The notes beneath the pieces are model-generated. The model did no database searches, had not been told where the DNA came from, and saw only the letters and a list, made by a program, of their open reading frames with translations. Both the position numbers and the translations under genes were made by a program. From assembly GCF_003334315.1 (NCBI RefSeq), contig NZ_QOWR01000076.1: a stretch of DNA of 15,313 bases. One strand, given 5' to 3'. The stretch is from Escherichia coli. Lineage in GTDB: Bacteria > Pseudomonadota > Gammaproteobacteria > Enterobacterales > Enterobacteriaceae. Positions 5,975 through 15,313 of the stretch are shown here, piece by piece. How positions within the stretch are numbered: the stretch's first letter is position 1; each line of letters begins with the position of its first letter.

Positions 5975-8900
5975 TTATTTCCGTACCCGATGTCGGTGCA
6001 GCCACATCAGCTTATACGCCGCCGGGATAATAAACAGCGACAGCAAAGGTGCGGTGATCATGCCGCCAATCATCGGCGCGGCAATCCGGCTCATCACCTC
6101 TGAACCAGCCCCCGTTCCCCACAGAATCGGCAGCAGACCGGCGATAATCACCGCCACCGTCATCGCTTTCGGGCGCACGCGCAGGACCGCGCCGTGATAT
6201 AACGCCTCATCCAGCTTCTGCTCGCTGAATGTTTGTGGATTATTCAACGACGGCACGGCCTCTATGGCGTGACGTAAATACATCAGCATCACCACGCCAA
6301 ATTCGGCGGCGACCCCGGCGAGGGCGATAAAGCCAGTGCCCGTCGCCACGGAAAGATGAAAGCCCATCCACCACAGCAACCAGATGCCGCCCACCAGCGC
6401 AAACGGTACGCTGCTGATAATCAGCAACGCTTCGCCCACCCGACGGAACGCCAGATACAACAGCACGAAGATAATCATCAACGTCATCGGCACCATGAGT
6501 TTAAGCTTATGGTTGGCGCGCTCCAGTAGCTCGAACTGCCCGGAGAATGCCACGCTGGTGCCCGGTTTTAACTGCACTTTTTCAGCTATCGCTTTTTGCA
6601 AATCGTGAACCACCGACACCATGTCACGATCGCGGGCATCGATATAAATCCAGCTCGTCGGGCGCGCATTCTCGGTTTTCAGCATCGACGGTCCGGTAGA
6701 GACTTTAATGTCGGCCACGTCTGCCAGGGTGATTTGCTGCTTCATCGGCGTCAGGATCGGCAGCTGGCGCAGTGCCTGCGGACTATCGCGCCAGCTTTGC
6801 GGATAACGCAGATTAATTGGATAACGGGCAATCCCTTCCACCGTTTCGCCAACCATCGCCCCGCCCACCGCAGAAGTCACAAACAACTGCACATCCGCCA
6901 CCGTCATACCGTAACGTGCGGCTTTTTCACGGTTAATCTCAACGTTGATATAGCGCCCACCTTCCAGCCGCTCGGCAAGCGCAGAAGCTACGCCTGGCAC
7001 CGTTCGCGCTACTTCTTCAATTTGCTCAGCCATCGCGTCGATATCCGCCAGCACAGTGCCGGAAACTTTAATGCCGATGGGGCTTTTAATGCCGGTTGAG
7101 AGCATATCGATACGGTTACGAATTGGCGGCACCCACAGATTCGCCAGCCCCGGCAGCCGCACGGTGTTATCCAGTTCCTCAATGATTTTGTCCATCGTCA
7201 TGCCTGGCCGCCACTGCTCCTGCGGCTTAAGCTGGATGGTCGTTTCTACCATCTCCAGCGGAGCAGAATCGGTGGCGGTTTCCGCTTTCCCGGTTTTGCC
7301 AAATACCCGCGCCACTTCAGGTACGCTCATAATTAGCTTGTCGGTTTTTTGCAGCATACTCGCCGCCTCTGCTGCGGAAATCCCCGGCAGCGTCGATGGC
7401 ATATACAACAAGTCGCCTTCATTGATCTGCGGTAAAAATTCCCCGCCAACTTTATTGAGCGGCCAGAGAACCGTCAGCACCGAAAGCGCCGCCACCAGCA
7501 GCGTGGTTTTCGGCCAGTGCAGTACTTTCAGCAACAGCGGATGATAAACACGAATCAAAAAGCGATTGAGCGGGTTACTGCTTTCCGGCGGAATTTTGCC
7601 ACGGATCCAGTAGCCCATCAGGATCGGGATCACTACGATCGCCAGCAGCGCCGCACCCGCCATCGCATACGTTTTGGTGAACGCCAACGGGCCAAACAGA
7701 CGCCCTTCCTGCCCTTCCAGGGTGAAGATCGGGATAAACGACAACGTGATAATCAGCAGACTGATAAATAGCGCCGGCCCCACTTCAACAGACGCATCGG
7801 TGATCACCTGCCAGCGCGTTTTATTATCCAGCGTGGCGTCAGGATGCTGGTGCTGCCACTCTTCCAGCCGTTTATGCGCATTCTCGATCATGACGATAGC
7901 AGCATCGACCATCGCCCCGACGGCAATCGCAATGCCACCCAACGACATAATATTGGCATTCAGTCCCTGGAAGTGCATGACAATAAAAGCAATACACAAC
8001 CCCAGCGGCAACGAAATAATCGCCACCAGCGCCGAGCGCACATGCCAGAGAAACAGCGCACAGACTACCGCCACCACAATAAACTCTTCCAGCAACTTGC
8101 CGCTGAGGTTGTCGATGGCGCGGTCAATGAGCTGGCTGCGATCGTATGTTGTAACTATCTCCACGCCTTCCGGCAGACTACTTTTCAGCGTTTCCAGTTT
8201 GTCCTTCACGGCGGCGATCACTTCTCGGGCGTTTTTGCCGGATCGCAGGATCACCACCCCGCCCGCCACTTCGCCTTCGCTGTTTAGTTCGGCAATGCCC
8301 CGGCGCATCTCCGGGCCAATCTGGACCTTCGCAACATCGCGCAGATAAACGGGCACGCCATTTTCACTGGCTTTTAAAACGATGTGATTAAAGTCGTCGA
8401 GCGTTTGCAGATAGCCGCTGGCGCGCACCATATATTCCGCTTCCGCCAGTTCGATCGACGAACCGCCCGCTTCCTGGTTTGAAGCATCCAGCGCGCTTTT
8501 TACTTCGGCGAGACTGATGCCATACTGCGCCAGGCGCTGGGGATCGATAACCACCTGATACTCTTTCACCACACCACCCACCGACGCCACTTCCGCAACG
8601 TCAGGGATGGTTTTCAGCTCATATTTGAGAAACCAGTCCTGTAATGAGCGTAAATCGGCCAGATCGTGCTTACCGCTGCGATCCACCAGTGCATATTCAT
8701 AGATCCAGCCAACACCCGTGGCATCTGGCCCCAGCTCGGCGCTGACTCCCGCAGGCAGCTTACCCTGTACCTGGTTGAGGTACTCCAGCACCCGCGAACG
8801 CGCCCAGTACGGATCGGTGCCATCTTCGAAAATGACATACACATAAGAGTCGCCAAACTGTGAGAAACCGCGCACAGTCTTCGCGCCAGGCACCGACAAC

Positions 8901-9118
8901 ATGGTGGTGGTTAGCGGATAAGTCACCTGATTTTCAACGATTTGTGGTGCCTGACCGGGATAGCTGGTTTTAATAATAACCTGCACATCGGAGAGATCCG
9001 GCAGCGCATCCACTGGCGTATTAATGATGGTCCAGGTGCCCCAGATGCTCAGAAACAACGCGCCCATCAGCACCAAAAAACGGTTCGCCACCGAGCGACG
9101 AATAATCCATTCAATCAT
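5975..9118 (-). CDS. cusA: CusA, RND-family inner-membrane Cu(I)/Ag(I) efflux pump
   Basis: 1047-aa ORF with typical RND architecture (12 transmembrane helices, two large periplasmic loops). The translation ([50 protein letters not shown]...) matches my recollection of E. coli CusA at full length. On the minus strand it starts 11 nt after the cusB stop, preceded by GGGA. Confidence 0.95.
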
Positions 9119-9129
9119 TGGTTATTCCC

Positions 9130-10353
9130 TCAATGCGCATGGGTAGCACTTTCAGAGCGCATCCGCTCCAGTGCGCCAGAAATATTGGCTTCGGAATCAA
9201 TCAGGAACAGGCCGCTGGAAACCACCTTTTCACCTTCCGCCAGACCAGAGCGTAATGCGGTGACGCCTTGCGATGCCTGGAAAACAGCAACGCGTTTCGG
9301 TACAAAGCGCCCGTCGGCATCAACGGTAATCACCCGCTGTTCGCTGCCGGTATCAATCAGCGCTTGTGACGGAATGAGCAGCATCGGTTCGCTGGCGGTG
9401 TTGAGTTGCAACCAGGCGTTCATGCCCGGTTTTAGCGCCTCGTCGGCGTTGTCGACTTCCAGACGCAGCTGCAGCGTGCGGGTCGCGGCATCCACGCCAG
9501 GTAGCAGCGTCCATTTGCGGATGGTGAGTGTTTTATCCGGTCGCGCCGGAACGGTGAGGGTAAACTGCGAGGCATCTTTCACCAGCCAGGCGATAGACTC
9601 CGGGATCGCAGCAGTGACCCACACCGGGTCCATACCCTGAATTTTCGCTACCACGTTATCTTTGGCGATATTCATTCCCGCGCGCAGATCAAACGCGGTG
9701 ATCACGCCATCAATGGGCGCTTTGAGCGTAAAGCGAGTCTGGATTTTTTGCGTGGCGATCAGGCGGCGAATATCCGCCTCCGGCATTCCCGCCAGTCGCA
9801 GCCGCTCAAGAATGCCTTCAGTCTGGGTCGCCGTACCGCCGGTTTCGCGCAGCAGTAAATACTCACTCTGCGCTTCCACCCAGTCAGGAATGGTCAGGTC
9901 GAGAAGCGGTGTGCCCTTTTGTACTTTATCGCCCACGGTAAGCGGATACACCTTGTCGATAAACCCGGCAGCGCGAGCCTGCACAATGGCATACTGATAC
10001 TCGTTGTAACTGACATTCGCCGGGAAACTCTGGGCAAAAGTCAGCGGTCCGCGCGTGACGGTAGCCGTTTTCACCCCCAGATTCTGCGTCTGAGTCGGGT
10101 CAATGCGCACACCAGACGCAGAACTCTCTTCATCGGCATATTTCGGCACCAGATCCATATCCATAAACGGCGATTTACCTGGTTTATCGAACCGCGTATT
10201 GGGATACATTAGGTCGTACCAGAATAAGATTTTACGTTCTGCGGTCGACGTTTTTTCTGCAGGCGGTTCCGCCTTTGCAACCCAGGTAAAACCTGCCGCA
10301 GAAATAATACCGCCCGCGATCATGCTGCCGATAATAAGCGCGATTTTTTTCAT
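9130..10353 (-). CDS. cusB: CusB, periplasmic membrane-fusion adaptor of the Cus efflux system
   Basis: 407-aa ORF with an N-terminal signal/anchor (MKKIALIIGSMIAGGIISAAGF). The N-terminal metal-binding methionines are visible in LMYPNTRFDKPGKSPFMDMDL. Correct size and position between cusF and cusA. Confidence 0.95.
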   Translation of the reverse strand: MKKIALIIGSMIAGGIISAAGFTWVAKAEPPAEKTSTAERKILFWYDLMYPNTRFDKPGKSPFMDMDLVPKYADEESSASGVRIDPTQTQNLGVKTATVTRGPLTFAQSFPANVSYNEYQYAIVQARAAGFIDKVYPLTVGDKVQKGTPLLDLTIPDWVEAQSEYLLLRETGGTATQTEGILERLRLAGMPEADIRRLIATQKIQTRFTLKAPIDGVITAFDLRAGMNIAKDNVVAKIQGMDPVWVTAAIPESIAWLVKDASQFTLTVPARPDKTLTIRKWTLLPGVDAATRTLQLRLEVDNADEALKPGMNAWLQLNTASEPMLLIPSQALIDTGSEQRVITVDADGRFVPKRVAVFQASQGVTALRSGLAEGEKVVSSGLFLIDSEANISGALERMRSESATHAH

Positions 10354-10368
10354 CTCATTAAACCTGGG

Positions 10369-10701
10369 TTACTGGCTGACTTTAATATCCTGTAATAAAG
10401 AAAGGTTGCCCTGCTGGACAAAATTAAACGCCACTTTGTCGCCGGTTTTAATTTCACTCATTTTCGTCTGCGGGGTGATGGTAAAGCGCATGGTCATCTC
10501 CGGCCAGTTCACAGCAGCAATCGGATCGTGATGGATGGTGATTTTTTTGCTTTCCAGATCAATACCCTTTACCTCGCCAGTGGCACTAATAACCTGTGGT
10601 TGTGCTTCGCTCATGGTTTCATGATGATGTTCGTTAGCCTGGGCATTAAAGCCAATAACGGTAAACAGACTGAACATTGCGACTTGCAGTGCTTTTTTCA
10701 T
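10369..10701 (-). CDS. cusF: CusF, periplasmic Cu(I)/Ag(I) metallochaperone
   Basis: 110-aa ORF with a signal peptide (MKKALQVAMFSLFTVIGFNAQA). The His/Trp/Met-x-Met ligand cluster is visible in ITIHHDPIAAVNWPEMTMRF. Good AGGAGAG Shine-Dalgarno on the minus strand just upstream of the ATG. Confidence 0.95.
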   Translation of the reverse strand: MKKALQVAMFSLFTVIGFNAQANEHHHETMSEAQPQVISATGEVKGIDLESKKITIHHDPIAAVNWPEMTMRFTITPQTKMSEIKTGDKVAFNFVQQGNLSLLQDIKVSQ

Positions 10702-10858: not shown

Positions 10859-12232
10859 TCAACCGCCACCAAGTGCGGTATACAAAGAAATTTCGTTAAC
10901 CTGACGGGCATAATTCAGGTCGAGTAAAGTTTGTCGGGTTGCAAATAAAGAACGCTCGGCATCCAGCACTTCCAGATAACTTACTGCGCCGTGCTGATAT
11001 AATGCCCGCGCCCGTTGCAAAGTAATTTGCAGCGATGCCAGATAACGCTGCTGGGCGCTAATTTGATCGTTCAGGCTTTGACGTAATGCCAGCGCATCTG
11101 CCACTTCTTTAAAGGCGTTCTGGATTTTCTGTTCATAATTCACCACCGACTGCTGCTGGCGAATTTCGGCGATATCCAGATTGGCCTGGTTGCGTCCGGC
11201 ATTAAAAATGGGGATCTCAATTTTGGGTATAAAATTCCACATCCCGCTGCTGGCGTTAAATAATGACGATAGATCGCTACTGGCGGTCGATATTCCGCTG
11301 GTCAGGCTTATAGACGGAAAAAATGCCGCGCGTGCAGCGCCAATATTGGCATTAGCCGCCATTAACGCGTGTTCAGCTTCCATAATATCCGGGCGCTGCA
11401 ATAAGATTTGCGACGACAATCCCGCCGGTAATTTAACGCTTTGCAGGCTGTCGCTGTTTACTGTCTGCGCTTGCGGCAGCTTGCCGTAGCTTCCCAATAA
11501 CAGTTGCAATGCATTATTCGCCTGCGCCAGTTCCCCCTGACGTTTAGCGATGTCGCTGCGGGTACTTTCAATCACCCCGCGAGCCTGTTCCAGCGCCAGA
11601 ACATTACTGCTACCTGTCAACAGTTGTTTTTCGACAAACGCATATGACTGCTGATAATTACGCAGCGTTTCTTCGGCTATTTGCAATTGCGCATACGCTA
11701 GCTGCTGATTGAAATAACTTTGCGCGACATTAGAAACCAGCAAAATATGCACCGCGCGCTGGGCTTCCTCAGTGGCTAAATAATTTTGGCGCTCGGCTTC
11801 GCTCATGTTCTTTAAGCGACCGAAAAAATCGAGGTCAAAGCTGGCGTTAAGGCCGGTCGAAAACTCCCGTGTCGTGGCGGTATTCCCTTTAAGATTACCG
11901 CTCCAGCTGCCGCTGCCCTCGCCATTGAGCTGTGGGTAGCGGTCGGCATCGGTCAGACGATATTGCGCCCGTGCCTCCTGCACTTTCAGCGTCGCCATGC
12001 GCAAATCCCGATTATTCACCAGCGCCTCGCTAATCAGCGTCTTCACCTGATTATCAACAAAAAAGGTGCGCCAGCCCGCGTTCTGATAGTTATCTGCTGC
12101 GTTAACCAGGCCGTTCTGGCTGAGTGAGAACTGCTGCGGCACGGGCATTGCCGGACGCTGATAATCCGGTGCCAGTGAACAACCGGTTAGCGCAAGGGCC
12201 ACACAAAATGGCAGAAGTTTACAAGGAGACAT
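10859..12232 (-). CDS. cusC: CusC, outer-membrane channel lipoprotein of the Cus efflux system (TolC-like)
   Basis: 457-aa ORF with a lipoprotein signal and lipobox (MSPCKLLPFCVALALTGCSLAP). Outer-membrane-factor family sequence, divergent from cusR and first gene of the cusCFBA operon. Confidence 0.95.
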   Translation of the reverse strand: MSPCKLLPFCVALALTGCSLAPDYQRPAMPVPQQFSLSQNGLVNAADNYQNAGWRTFFVDNQVKTLISEALVNNRDLRMATLKVQEARAQYRLTDADRYPQLNGEGSGSWSGNLKGNTATTREFSTGLNASFDLDFFGRLKNMSEAERQNYLATEEAQRAVHILLVSNVAQSYFNQQLAYAQLQIAEETLRNYQQSYAFVEKQLLTGSSNVLALEQARGVIESTRSDIAKRQGELAQANNALQLLLGSYGKLPQAQTVNSDSLQSVKLPAGLSSQILLQRPDIMEAEHALMAANANIGAARAAFFPSISLTSGISTASSDLSSLFNASSGMWNFIPKIEIPIFNAGRNQANLDIAEIRQQQSVVNYEQKIQNAFKEVADALALRQSLNDQISAQQRYLASLQITLQRARALYQHGAVSYLEVLDAERSLFATRQTLLDLNYARQVNEISLYTALGGG

Positions 12233-12301
12233 AGGCTCATAATTTCTGGTGATTTTATACCGCCAACTTTACTCGCCAGGCTCTGATTTTCCGGTGACAG
12301 G

Positions 12302-12323
12302 AAAATGACAAAATTGTCATTTT
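12302..12323. promoter_or_regulatory. CusR box (response-regulator binding palindrome) in the cusC/cusRS divergent control region
   Basis: AAAATGACAA-AA-TTGTCATTTT: two perfect 10-bp inverted arms around a 2-bp spacer, which is the published CusR-box consensus AAAATGACAANNTTGTCATTTT. It lies between a candidate cusC -10 (TATAAA on the minus strand, plus coordinates 12259..12254) and the candidate cusR promoter. Confidence 0.85.
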
Positions 12324-12335
12324 GCCAATAAGCGA

Positions 12336-12363
12336 TTGCCATCTGATCCCGCTACTCTAGAAT
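12336..12363 (+). promoter_or_regulatory. Candidate sigma70 promoter for cusRS
   Basis: -35 TTGCCA (12336-12341), 16-bp spacer, -10 TAGAAT (12358-12363), about 25 nt upstream of the cusR ATG. Predicted by eye only. Confidence 0.4.
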
Positions 12364-12388
12364 TGCCCGGGCAACATGCGGAGGAAAT

Positions 12389-13072
12389 ATGAAACTGTTG
12401 ATTGTCGAAGATGAAAAGAAAACCGGAGAATACTTGACCAAAGGGTTAACCGAAGCCGGTTTTGTGGTCGATTTGGCCGACAACGGGCTGAATGGCTACC
12501 ATCTGGCGATGACCGGTGATTATGATCTGATAATCCTCGATATTATGCTGCCGGACGTGAACGGCTGGGATATCGTGCGCATGTTACGCTCCGCCAATAA
12601 AGGGATGCCGATTCTGTTGCTTACCGCGCTTGGCACCATTGAACATCGCGTCAAGGGGCTGGAGTTGGGGGCAGATGACTACCTGGTGAAGCCATTCGCT
12701 TTTGCTGAACTGCTGGCGCGGGTGCGCACATTACTGCGGCGCGGGGCGGCGGTGATTATCGAAAGTCAGTTTCAGGTTGCCGATTTGATGGTCGATCTCG
12801 TCAGCCGCAAAGTCACCCGCAGCGGCACGCGCATCACTTTGACCAGTAAAGAGTTTACTCTGCTGGAGTTCTTCCTTCGCCATCAGGGCGAAGTGCTGCC
12901 CCGCTCGCTTATCGCCTCGCAGGTATGGGACATGAATTTTGACAGCGATACCAATGCTATTGATGTGGCGGTGAAGCGGCTGCGCGGCAAAATCGACAAC
13001 GACTTTGAGCCGAAGCTAATTCAGACCGTGCGCGGCGTGGGTTACATGCTTGAGGTGCCGGATGGTCAGTAA
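12389..13072 (+). CDS. cusR: CusR, OmpR-family response regulator of the CusS/CusR two-component system
   Basis: 227-aa ORF, GGAGG at 12380-12384. Receiver domain with the conserved phospho-acceptor context ([17 protein letters not shown]) and a C-terminal winged-helix domain ([21 protein letters not shown]...). Matches my recollection of E. coli CusR. Confidence 0.95.
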
Positions 13073-14510
13073 GCCATTTCAGCGCCCGTTTTCGCTGGCA
13101 ACCCGCCTGACCTTTTTTATCAGCCTGGCCACCATCGCGGCGTTTTTCGCCTTTGCATGGATCATGATCCACTCAGTAAAAGTTCATTTTGCCGAGCAGG
13201 ATATTAATGATTTAAAAGAGATTAGCGCCACCCTTGAACGGGTACTAAATCACCCTGACGAAACGCAAGCCCGACGCTTAATGACGCTGGAAGATATCGT
13301 CAGTGGTTATTCCAATGTGTTGATTTCCCTGGCAGATAGTCAGGGTAAAACGGTGTATCACTCCCCCGGTGCGCCGGATATCCGCGAGTTTACGCGTGAC
13401 GCCATACCCGATAAAGACGCTCAGGGTGGCGAGGTGTATCTCCTTTCCGGCCCGACGATGATGATGCCAGGCCACGGTCACGGGCATATGGAACACAGCA
13501 ACTGGCGGATGATTAACTTGCCGGTTGGCCCGTTGGTGGACGGCAAACCGATTTATACGCTCTACATCGCGCTTTCGATCGATTTTCATCTTCATTACAT
13601 AAATGATTTGATGAATAAACTTATTATGACCGCATCGGTAATCAGCATCCTGATCGTCTTTATCGTACTGTTGGCGGTACATAAAGGTCACGCGCCGATC
13701 CGCAGCGTCAGCCGTCAAATCCAGAATATTACCTCGAAAGATCTCGACGTTCGCCTCGACCCGCAGACCGTGCCGATTGAGCTGGAACAGCTGGTACTGT
13801 CGTTCAACCATATGATCGAGCGTATTGAGGATGTCTTTACCCGCCAGTCCAATTTCTCAGCGGATATCGCTCACGAAATTCGCACGCCGATTACCAATCT
13901 CATCACGCAAACGGAAATCGCCCTCAGCCAGTCTCGCAGCCAGAAGGAGCTGGAAGATGTGCTCTACTCTAATCTCGAAGAGCTGACGCGAATGGCGAAA
14001 ATGGTCAGCGATATGCTGTTTCTCGCTCAGGCCGATAACAACCAGCTAATCCCCGAAAAGAAAATGCTCAACCTGGCGGATGAAGTCGGCAAAGTGTTCG
14101 ATTTTTTCGAGGCGTTAGCGGAAGATCGCGGCGTGGAGTTGCGATTTGTTGGCGACAAATGTCAGGTTGCGGGCGATCCGCTGATGCTGCGTCGGGCGTT
14201 AAGCAACCTGCTTTCTAATGCCCTGCGTTATACGCCACCCAGTGAGGCTATTGTAGTGCGCTGCCAGACGGTCAATCATCAGGTGCAAGTTTCCGTCGAA
14301 AACCCCGGTACGCCCATTGCGCCCGAGCACTTACCGCGATTGTTTGACCGTTTCTATCGCGTTGACCCTTCCCGCCAGCGAAAAGGCGAAGGTAGCGGCA
14401 TTGGGCTGGCGATAGTGAAATCGATTGTTGTCGCGCATAAAGGCACGGTTGCAGTAACGTCAGATGCGCGGGGGACAAGGTTTGTGATTATGCTGCCAGA
14501 GAGAGAGTGA
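13062..14510 (+). CDS. cusS: CusS, copper/silver-sensing histidine kinase
   Basis: ATG at 13062 preceded by GAGG at 13052-13055, giving a 480-aa product ([41 protein letters not shown]...). Two transmembrane helices flank a periplasmic sensor domain, followed by HAMP, an H-box ([15 protein letters not shown]) and an ATPase domain ([13 protein letters not shown]). The start overlaps the cusR stop by 11 nt. The track's TTG at 13050 was rejected. Confidence 0.95.
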
Positions 14511-15246
14511 TTATTAAGTTCAAATTCAGGGCGTGGTGCATCACCTCCTGGTATTGTTGATCAACAAATTAGAGAAAAACTTATTAAACATATGAAATAT
14601 CGAAGGCTTTTATTTTTCAAAGTTTCACGAGATGTTTGTATATGAAACTTAGTTAAATCTGTGTTTCTTCCAATTGTAGATCACAATGCCCTTTCTAAAT
14701 TTTCATCGTTATAAACAAGCCATCTATCATATAAAGCAATGAATAATTTAATCGCGATTAATCATCATTAATTGTTATATTATTCACTCAATCTATTTAT
14801 CAAGTGAATTTGATAAATTCCTAATTTAAAATATCCACTATTGAGCCAGTATTTAACAACGTTAAGATGTGCAATGTGCAGATCATGTTATCAGGGTGGA
14901 GCGGTAGCATATATTTCTTATGCAATCATTCATTTTAATAATGTTAATTGGATTATTTATTGCTGTGAATAAAAATATATTATGAATATTGGTTTAACTT
15001 TACGTTTTTGTTACTCGTTGTGATATGCGTACCTGTCCTGAATAACGCCAAGAAACAAGAGGTTGAGCTTGTGATTATTTTTTTGACTGAACAGACACCC
15101 GTTTCTGTAAAGTAATATTTAAACAAAATTCTCACATAACCATAGCATTTTCTGTTCCTTCCCTAATAACGTCTGAAGTCGTCCCGCTTATCACATTATC
15201 CGCAGTTGTACGGTACGGATCATTATTCATTTTACTGGAGGTTGCT
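14511..15246. other. AT-rich non-coding spacer between cusS and the VgrG-like gene; likely promoter / xenogeneic-silencing region
   Basis: No ORF of 60 aa or more on either strand in the track. Two 60-nt lines I counted by hand (14761-14820 and 14941-15000) are each about 20% G+C, against roughly 50% in the flanking genes. Contains interleaved short palindromes at 14782-14820. Confidence 0.6.
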
Positions 15247-15313
15247 ATGTCAACCGGATTACGTTTCACACTGGAAGTGGACGGCCTGCCGCCGGATGCT
15301 TTTGCGGTGGTTT
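15247..15313 (+). CDS. vgrG: 5' end (22 codons) of a VgrG-like type VI secretion spike protein gene, truncated by the window edge
   Basis: ATG at 15247 preceded by GGAGG at 15237-15241 with a 5-nt spacer. The translation MSTGLRFTLEVDGLPPDAFAVV fits the N-terminal pattern of VgrG/gp27-like proteins as I recall it (compare V. cholerae VgrG1, which I recall as MATLAYSIEVEGLEDETLVV...). Only 22 residues are visible, so the family call is provisional. Confidence 0.5.
   Translation, partial: MSTGLRFTLEVDGLPPDAFAVV

Follow-up and report, generated by a model that had tools for sequence, protein, structure and literature searches.

The copper and silver response of Escherichia coli K-12 is the closest described system to the control region analyzed here. 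According to the K-12 literature, copper induction of both cus operons needs CusRS, and in the published model periplasmic Cu(I) or Ag(I) would cause CusS to phosphorylate CusR. Both operons are activated by phosphorylated CusR from the CusR box (PMC10920338). The recognition sequence is given as AAAATGACAAnnTTGTCATTTT and placed between cusRS and cusC(F)BA in the passage of PMC11195947 that quotes it, and the passages on the K-12 box in PMC11195947 and PMC10920338 credit it to Yamamoto & Ishihama (2005). CusR ChIP-chip gave one peak in the E. coli chromosome, which lies within the cusC/cusR spacer (bioRxiv 10.1101/2020.08.17.251918), and genomic SELEX identified this spacer as a CusR target and as the strongest target of HprR (PMC8249747). 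HprR recognizes the sequence used by CusR, with an affinity that differs, and each of the two regulators binds both boxes, the one at cus and the one at hiuH-hprR (PMC8249747). The cusR promoter has been described as having a single binding site and ~5-fold induction (PMC9725139). PhoB has been placed at the same locus: TGTCATTTTTCTGTCACC of K-12 was the motif under a PhoB ChIP-seq peak at cusR/cusC with a score of 3, against 20 at phoA, cusC RNA was 208 in the wild type but 50 when phoB was deleted, and the authors described the site as conserved in related species (PMC10294691).

Two systems outside E. coli are useful for comparison. For AgrR of Cupriavidus metallidurans, a homologue, mutations in the inverted repeat and in the promoter-proximal direct repeat each impair activation (PMC7380067), so that an inverted repeat combined with an in-phase direct repeat provides a precedent for the composite layout that we describe below for cus. 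AgrR differs from cus in its half-site (ATTACA), in a type II box that overlaps the -35, and in having the unphosphorylated protein as its active form. The CusR palindrome of Pseudomonas paraeruginosa, ATTCATnnATGTAAT (PMC11195947), is like that of cus a single perfect palindrome, located between cusRS and a divergent structural operon, and it too serves several response regulators, whose effects differ. The half-site sequence is a different one, however, and the competitors are CopR and CzcR, whereas in E. coli they are HprR and PhoB.

The stretch of E. coli DNA that was analyzed, referred to here as the window, is 15,313 nucleotides long and carries, in order, sok/hokE, ybdK, ybdJ, ybdF, nfsB, ybdG, pheP, cusA, cusB, cusF, cusC, cusR, cusS and the start of vgrG. 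The genes of the cus locus are the following:

5975 to 9118: cusA, member of the cusCFBA operon
9130 to 10353: cusB, member of the cusCFBA operon
10369 to 10701: cusF, member of the cusCFBA operon
10859 to 12232, minus strand: cusC, first gene of cusCFBA (NCBIfam NF007347, 899.6 bits)
12389 to 13072, plus strand: cusR, response regulator (NCBIfam equivalog NF007346, 507.9 bits at a cut-off of 420)
13062 to 14510, plus strand: cusS, sensor kinase (NCBIfam NF007345, 986 bits, and a cusS annotation)

The spacer between the cusC (minus) and cusR (plus) reading frames, 12233 to 12388, is exactly 156 bp long and holds the site that is the subject of this analysis:

12302 to 12323: CusR/HprR box, a perfect palindrome AAAATGACAA-AA-TTGTCATTTT with its centre at 12312.5

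NCBIfam and RefSeq agree in placing this palindrome in the divergent cusCFBA/cusRS spacer, adjoining cusR. The 356-bp stretch from 12133 to 12488 was found in 5333 of 5426 complete E. coli genomes, all at 95% identity or more and at 100% in strain 214-4, and in every matching genome the annotation around it is cusC on one side and cusR on the other.

Both ends of the window lie in other surroundings. Positions 1-156 of the minus strand match the sok antitoxin RNA over its full length (Rfam RF01794, 63.7 bits compared to a gathering score of 59), and in the identical strain the hokE toxin gene is annotated just past the left end, so the window starts within a hok/sok-type module. On the other side, 14511-15313 consists of about 735 bp with no annotated gene 3' of cusS, followed by the type VI secretion gene vgrG from about 15247, and beyond vgrG the matching strain has DcrB-like and frameshifted Rhs genes. 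The region 3' of cusS looks like a strain-variable island adjoining the cus locus.

The sequence-only reading had reported a perfect palindrome that exactly matches the published CusR recognition sequence and had called it known biology, and all of this holds. Bases 12302-12323 read AAAATGACAAAATTGTCATTTT, a 10+2+10 palindrome whose arms (12302-12311 and 12314-12323) are complementary at 100% with 2 nt between them, and the sequence equals the CusR box consensus in the part of PMC11195947 where it is quoted. The pattern AAAATGACAANNTTGTCATTTT matches once in the 15.3-kb window, even with 3 mismatches allowed, and was matched by 0 of 200 dinucleotide-preserving shuffles. Additionally, the 32-mer 12302-12333, which is the box and the next 10 bases, matches 5148 of the 5426 complete E. 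coli genomes, a count in which the last query base or bases may vary unseen. The K-12 box is identical to that of the window in its 22-bp sequence and in its position between cusC and cusR, and the two strains also share the CusR protein (WP_000770953.1). The published binding of CusR and HprR is to the K-12 spacer, and the box of the window would presumably be bound as well.

The spacers of the window and of K-12 differ by two single bases, both outside the palindrome. One is at 12259 (A in the window, G in K-12), near the predicted cusC start, and the other is at 12301 (G in the window, A in K-12), which adjoins the box and falls inside the spacer of the pho box described below. An alignment of six strains gave 12249, 12259, 12261 and 12301 as the variable sites, all outside the conserved blocks, with G at 12301 in four of the six when the window is counted. 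The spacer also contains a direct repeat of 20 nt with 80% identity, AGGCTCATAATTTCTGGTGA at 12233-12252 and AGGCTCTGATTTTCCGGTGA at 12278-12297, 45 bp apart. Its first copy spans the cusC leader, and its second takes in the CTCTG block and the first part of the extra half-site listed below; this repeat may be due to chance.

On this basis we consider it very probable that the palindrome is the operator of the CusS/CusR copper/silver two-component system, from which the divergent cusCFBA and cusRS promoters are activated, with an overlapping PhoB input. Phosphorylated CusR would bind the palindrome and turn on a divergent pair of sigma-70 promoters, that of cusCFBA on the left side and that of cusRS on the right, and the paralogue HprR would recognize the same box.

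To place the promoters we relied on relatives of the locus. Metagenome contigs were scanned for the box together with the geometry of the cusR side, leaving the cusC side free and excluding E. coli, which gave 120 loci, 87 distinct control regions and finally 26 representatives that are mutually more than 12% different; a cusC-like gene lies directly left of the box in 23 of the 26. The cross-genus scan patterns fixed the core of both arms, so that the right arm was free at its first base alone, which varies between T and C. In total about 90 distinct cus/sil control regions were compared, and as these loci share ancestry the counts overstate the number of independent observations. It was a protein search that led to the sil loci, which blastn of the spacer against plasmids had missed.

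The cusR promoter is the simpler of the two:

12336 to 12341, plus strand: cusR -35 TTGCCA, from the promoter scan and conserved spacing
12358 to 12363, plus strand: cusR -10 TAGAAT, from the promoter scan and conserved spacing

Separated by a 16-nt spacer, these hexamers agree with the consensus at 10 of 12 positions and are the sole promoter-like match of the consensus scan. In an ungapped alignment anchored on the box centre, in which the promoter elements were not imposed, TTG(C/A)(C/T)A begins 23.5 bp from the centre and TA(G/A/C)AAT 45.5 bp from it, and this holds for each of the six loci aligned (E. coli, two Citrobacter species, the Klebsiella pneumoniae chromosome, a sil plasmid and Denitrificimonas). 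A sigma-70 -35/-10 pair with a spacer of 16-18 nt is thus kept in relatives, and the cusR promoter that had been proposed from the sequence stands, at a fixed distance to the box in every related locus examined. The predicted start is at about 12370, and GGAGG (12380-12384) and the ATG (12389) come after it. Given the conserved -10 hexamer, and with the start 7 nt away as is usual, the box centre would lie at about -57.5 from the cusR start. A near-consensus -35/-10 would fit the modest, ~5-fold induction reported for this promoter. Just upstream of the -35, at 12329-12334 (17-22 bp right of the centre), a TAA..C element is kept in most related regions, and the C right after the -35 hexamer is conserved as well; neither was imposed by the search pattern.

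The cusC side is where our analysis departs from the sequence-only reading, which had taken TATAAA as the cusC -10. The two candidates are:

12266 to 12271, minus strand: proposed cusC -10 TAAAGT, a TAnnnT conserved at a fixed distance
12254 to 12259, minus strand: earlier candidate cusC -10 TATAAA, at or just past the predicted start

On the cusC-ward strand each of the 23 diverged control regions has a TAnnnT that begins 41.5 bp from the box centre, with TAAAGT as the commonest form. It sits 12 bp closer to the box than TATAAA, at whose position no hexamer is conserved across the same 23 regions. TATAAA also depends on the A at 12259, and the G of K-12 gives CATAAA. The 32-mer 12244-12275 is present with the TATAAA allele of the window in 1071 complete E. 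coli genomes and with the CATAAA allele of K-12 in 2533, and other variants occur elsewhere; the genomes with the A allele include O157:H7. TATAAA is therefore probably not the cusC -10, judging from the conservation of sequence. It could still be argued that the -10 is TATAAA (12259 to 12254) or the overlapping TAAAAT, with a start at about 12245-12247 and the box at about -66. The TATAAA hexamer is present in the strain of the window, TAAAAT (12257 to 12252) matches the consensus at 5 of 6 positions in both alleles, and an ATAAAT-like stretch is loosely conserved in Citrobacter and Klebsiella, at a variable distance. We regard this layout as improbable, as it has to contend with the invariant TAnnnT, with CATAAA in K-12 and most genomes, with a promoter scan that gave no match on the minus strand, and with the silE, pcoE and hiuH promoters, all of which have their -10 at 40.5-41.5 bp.

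With TAAAGT as the -10, the usual 7-nt distance predicts a cusC start at about 12259 (12257-12260), a leader of about 27 nt and a box centre at about -53.5. This is also the value that we take to be recorded in a database for CusR at the cusC promoter, and footprinting by conservation agrees with it. The earlier estimate that the box centre lies 55-65 bp from both starts would hold for cusR and be slightly too high for cusC, where the predicted distance is just below that range, both figures being derived from the -10 hexamers. No -35-like hexamer is conserved in the comparison of the cusC side, which is as expected of an activator-dependent promoter, and a -35 role for CTGTCA was rejected since the spacer would be 23 nt. 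The cusC promoter, with TAAAGT as its -10 and no -35, would then depend on its activator, in contrast to the near-consensus cusR promoter.

Once the starts are placed it can be asked if the palindrome acts as a nucleic acid structure, a DNA cruciform or an RNA hairpin of the terminator or attenuator kind, rather than as a protein site. The single strand does fold, with a 9-bp stem at -7.7 kcal/mol and a z-score of -3.1. Yet the stem, A/T-rich and weak, lacks a T-tract, a scan for terminators gave no match, and no Rfam family matches at the box. In addition, both predicted starts are outside the box and direct transcription away from it, so that the box would not be transcribed. The hairpin or terminator reading was rejected for the weak stem, the missing T-tract and the absence of a terminator or Rfam match, and we give it next to no credence.

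Two metagenomic loci in the comparison, L167 and L226, bear directly on the CusR operator and its two promoters. In both of them about 1.8 kb is inserted between cusC and cusR, and the box is present in two copies:

L167, 4831 to 4846 and 6684 to 6699: the two boxes of the first split locus
L226, 1276 to 1291 and 3008 to 3023: the two boxes of the second split locus

The copy next to cusC is still accompanied by the extra half-site, by the AACAG block and by the -10, and the copy next to cusR by the -35 and -10. Because each promoter has retained one box together with only its own elements, the split loci support the view that both promoters need the box and that the additional elements are part of the cusC promoter. 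The proposal of a single site serving both directions is in keeping with the literature and with these two loci, where the duplicated box provides one copy per promoter. The insert of L167 holds an ORF of 428 aa.

The extra elements of the cusC side are, in the window:

12294 to 12300, minus strand: extra half-site CTGTCAC, 11 bp past the left arm of the palindrome
12293 to 12310, minus strand: pho box TGTCAT-TTTC-CTGTCAC-C, which overlaps the CusR box at its left arm
12281 to 12285, minus strand: CAGAG block (CTCTG on the plus strand), with the wider motif AA(A/T)CAG, at about -26 to -22 from the predicted cusC start

At the exact position of the extra half-site, GTCA (GTAA in two) is found in all 23 diverged cus/sil control regions, and the AA(A/T)CAG block follows 11 bp past it in 23 of 23 representatives. 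A mirror-image half-site on the cusR side is absent among the 23. In three cus-like loci the extra half-site is GTTACAG instead of GTGACAG, a G-to-T change that is the same as the difference between CusR-type and HprR-type half-sites.

Together with the left arm, the in-phase extra half-site makes a tandem repeat that exists on the cusC side only. It consists of two direct 7-bp repeats with a 4-bp A/T-rich spacer, TTGTCAT-TTTC-CTGTCAC, from 12311 to 12294 on the minus strand. We located TGTCATTTTTCTGTCACC in K-12, and the copy in the window has one mismatch, at spacer base 12301; the pho box at cus, 7-bp repeats with an 11-bp period (TGTCAT-N4-CTGTCAC), is thus one spacer base off the sequence of PMC10294691. 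The G allele at 12301 might change the affinity of PhoB. The tandem repeat is the published PhoB site, which makes phosphate starvation a second activating input to cusC. A classical pho box replaces the -35 and ends about 10 bp upstream of the -10. The one at cus departs from this spacing, as its repeat ends at 12294, 22 bp from the predicted -10 at 12271, and it differs further in sharing one half-site with the palindrome of another regulator.

Given this overlap, one could take the site as chiefly a PhoB site in which the symmetry of the palindrome is incidental. The pho box is near-perfect, and PhoB binds there and activates cusC in K-12 (PMC10294691). However, the right arm lies outside the pho box, and yet the 32-mer spanning the whole CusR box is kept in 5148 of 5426 E. 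coli genomes. The conservation of the right arm across genera is not independent evidence here because the scan patterns fixed the core of the arms. The cusR-side copies of the split loci have the full palindrome without the extra half-site, and the PhoB ChIP score is low, 3 compared to 20 at phoA. CusR ChIP and genomic SELEX map to the spacer, and copper induction needs CusRS. A purely PhoB site was rejected on the CusR binding data, the CusRS-dependent induction and the split-locus copies that do without the extra half-site, and we think it very unlikely that PhoB is the main regulator acting here.

With CusR retained as the primary regulator, we infer by analogy to AgrR that CusR itself may also use the extra half-site. 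The AgrR-type arrangement, an extra half-site on the promoter side one helical turn off, is found 11 bp from the proximal arm in the 23 of 23 cus/sil control regions and at silE, pcoE and hiuH. A larger view, which we put forward tentatively and at somewhat less than even chances, is that the palindrome is the high-affinity core of a one-sided module made up of the palindrome, an in-phase promoter-proximal half-site, the AACAG block and a -10 at 41.5 bp, and that CusR and its relatives use the extra half-site, not only PhoB. Apart from the AACAG block, which hiuH lacks, the parts of this module are common to the promoters of cusC, silC, silE, pcoE and hiuH, with the -10 of silE at 40.5 bp. If this is true, the promoters of the structural genes would be activated in a different mode from that of the regulator gene, and the PhoB input to cusC would exist because the tandem half-site happens to be a pho box.

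A comparison with HprR/CusR-box variants elsewhere, which the sequence-only reading had suggested, was run. The hiuH-hprR box CATTACAAAATTGTAATG (PMC9302797) has the same inverted 6-2-6 layout as the cus box, with TTACAA as its half-site where cus has TGACAA. It also has an in-phase extra half-site, CTGTAAG, toward the structural gene, as on the cusC side, and in K-12 the hiuH -10 begins 41.5 bp from the centre, as at cusC. Unlike cusC, hiuH has no AACAG block, and the hprR promoter is much nearer to its own box than the cusR promoter is to the cus box. The PhoB study (PMC10294691) does not mention hiuH or hprR and reports no PhoB peak there.

The plasmid silver and copper systems are closer still to cus in this respect. 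The sil and pco promoters share the order and spacing of cusC, with the box, the extra half-site 11 bp on, AACAG and the -10, and this recurs in six silE-type promoters and in pcoE, with the -10 at 40.5 bp (silE) or 41.5 bp (pcoE). The -35 and -10 of silR are at the same distances from the box as those of cusR. Differences are seen in the flanks of the sil/pco boxes, ATAATGACAATGTTGTCATTTT, and in silE and pcoE being one-directional promoters with a consensus TATAAT, unlike the divergent cus. PMC11195947 places pcoE under CusR control. At pcoA only about 30 bp separate the box TTACAC-GA-TTGTAA (741-754 of locus L125) from TAGATT, the -10-like hexamer closest to it, a geometry that differs from the 41.5 bp of the cusC, silE, pcoE and hiuH promoters.

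The box on its own, when scanned against 100,044 species genomes, gave at least 120 matches, and most of those listed are not cus-related; the cus-like ones among the matches listed are only Citrobacter (two loci), Denitrificimonas and Collimonas. Two groups recur among the others. The 18-mer AATGACAACGCTGTCATT occurs, often 2-3 times per genome, in fourteen loci of Pseudoalteromonas, Shewanella, Colwellia and Rheinheimera. These loci have no nearby CusR-like gene, several of them precede a conserved gtgtaacattaattcaac stretch, and AATGACAACGCTGTCATT is probably the operator of an unrelated regulator. Eleven Collinsella loci carry AATGACAACGTTGTCATT with a partial copy, AATGACAACGT, 5 bp later, and this locus is unrelated to cus.

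The finding is correct and already known, and belongs to textbook-level biology. The box is the copper/silver efflux switch of E. coli, intact in the strain of the window, which is useful for annotation without being new. Two points go beyond the earlier assignment. The position of the cusC promoter is probably corrected relative to TATAAA, and the published PhoB input, which had been overlooked, is carried by the same short stretch. The promoter layout common to chromosomal and plasmid copper/silver genes could guide the design of biosensors and studies of cross-talk between response regulators.
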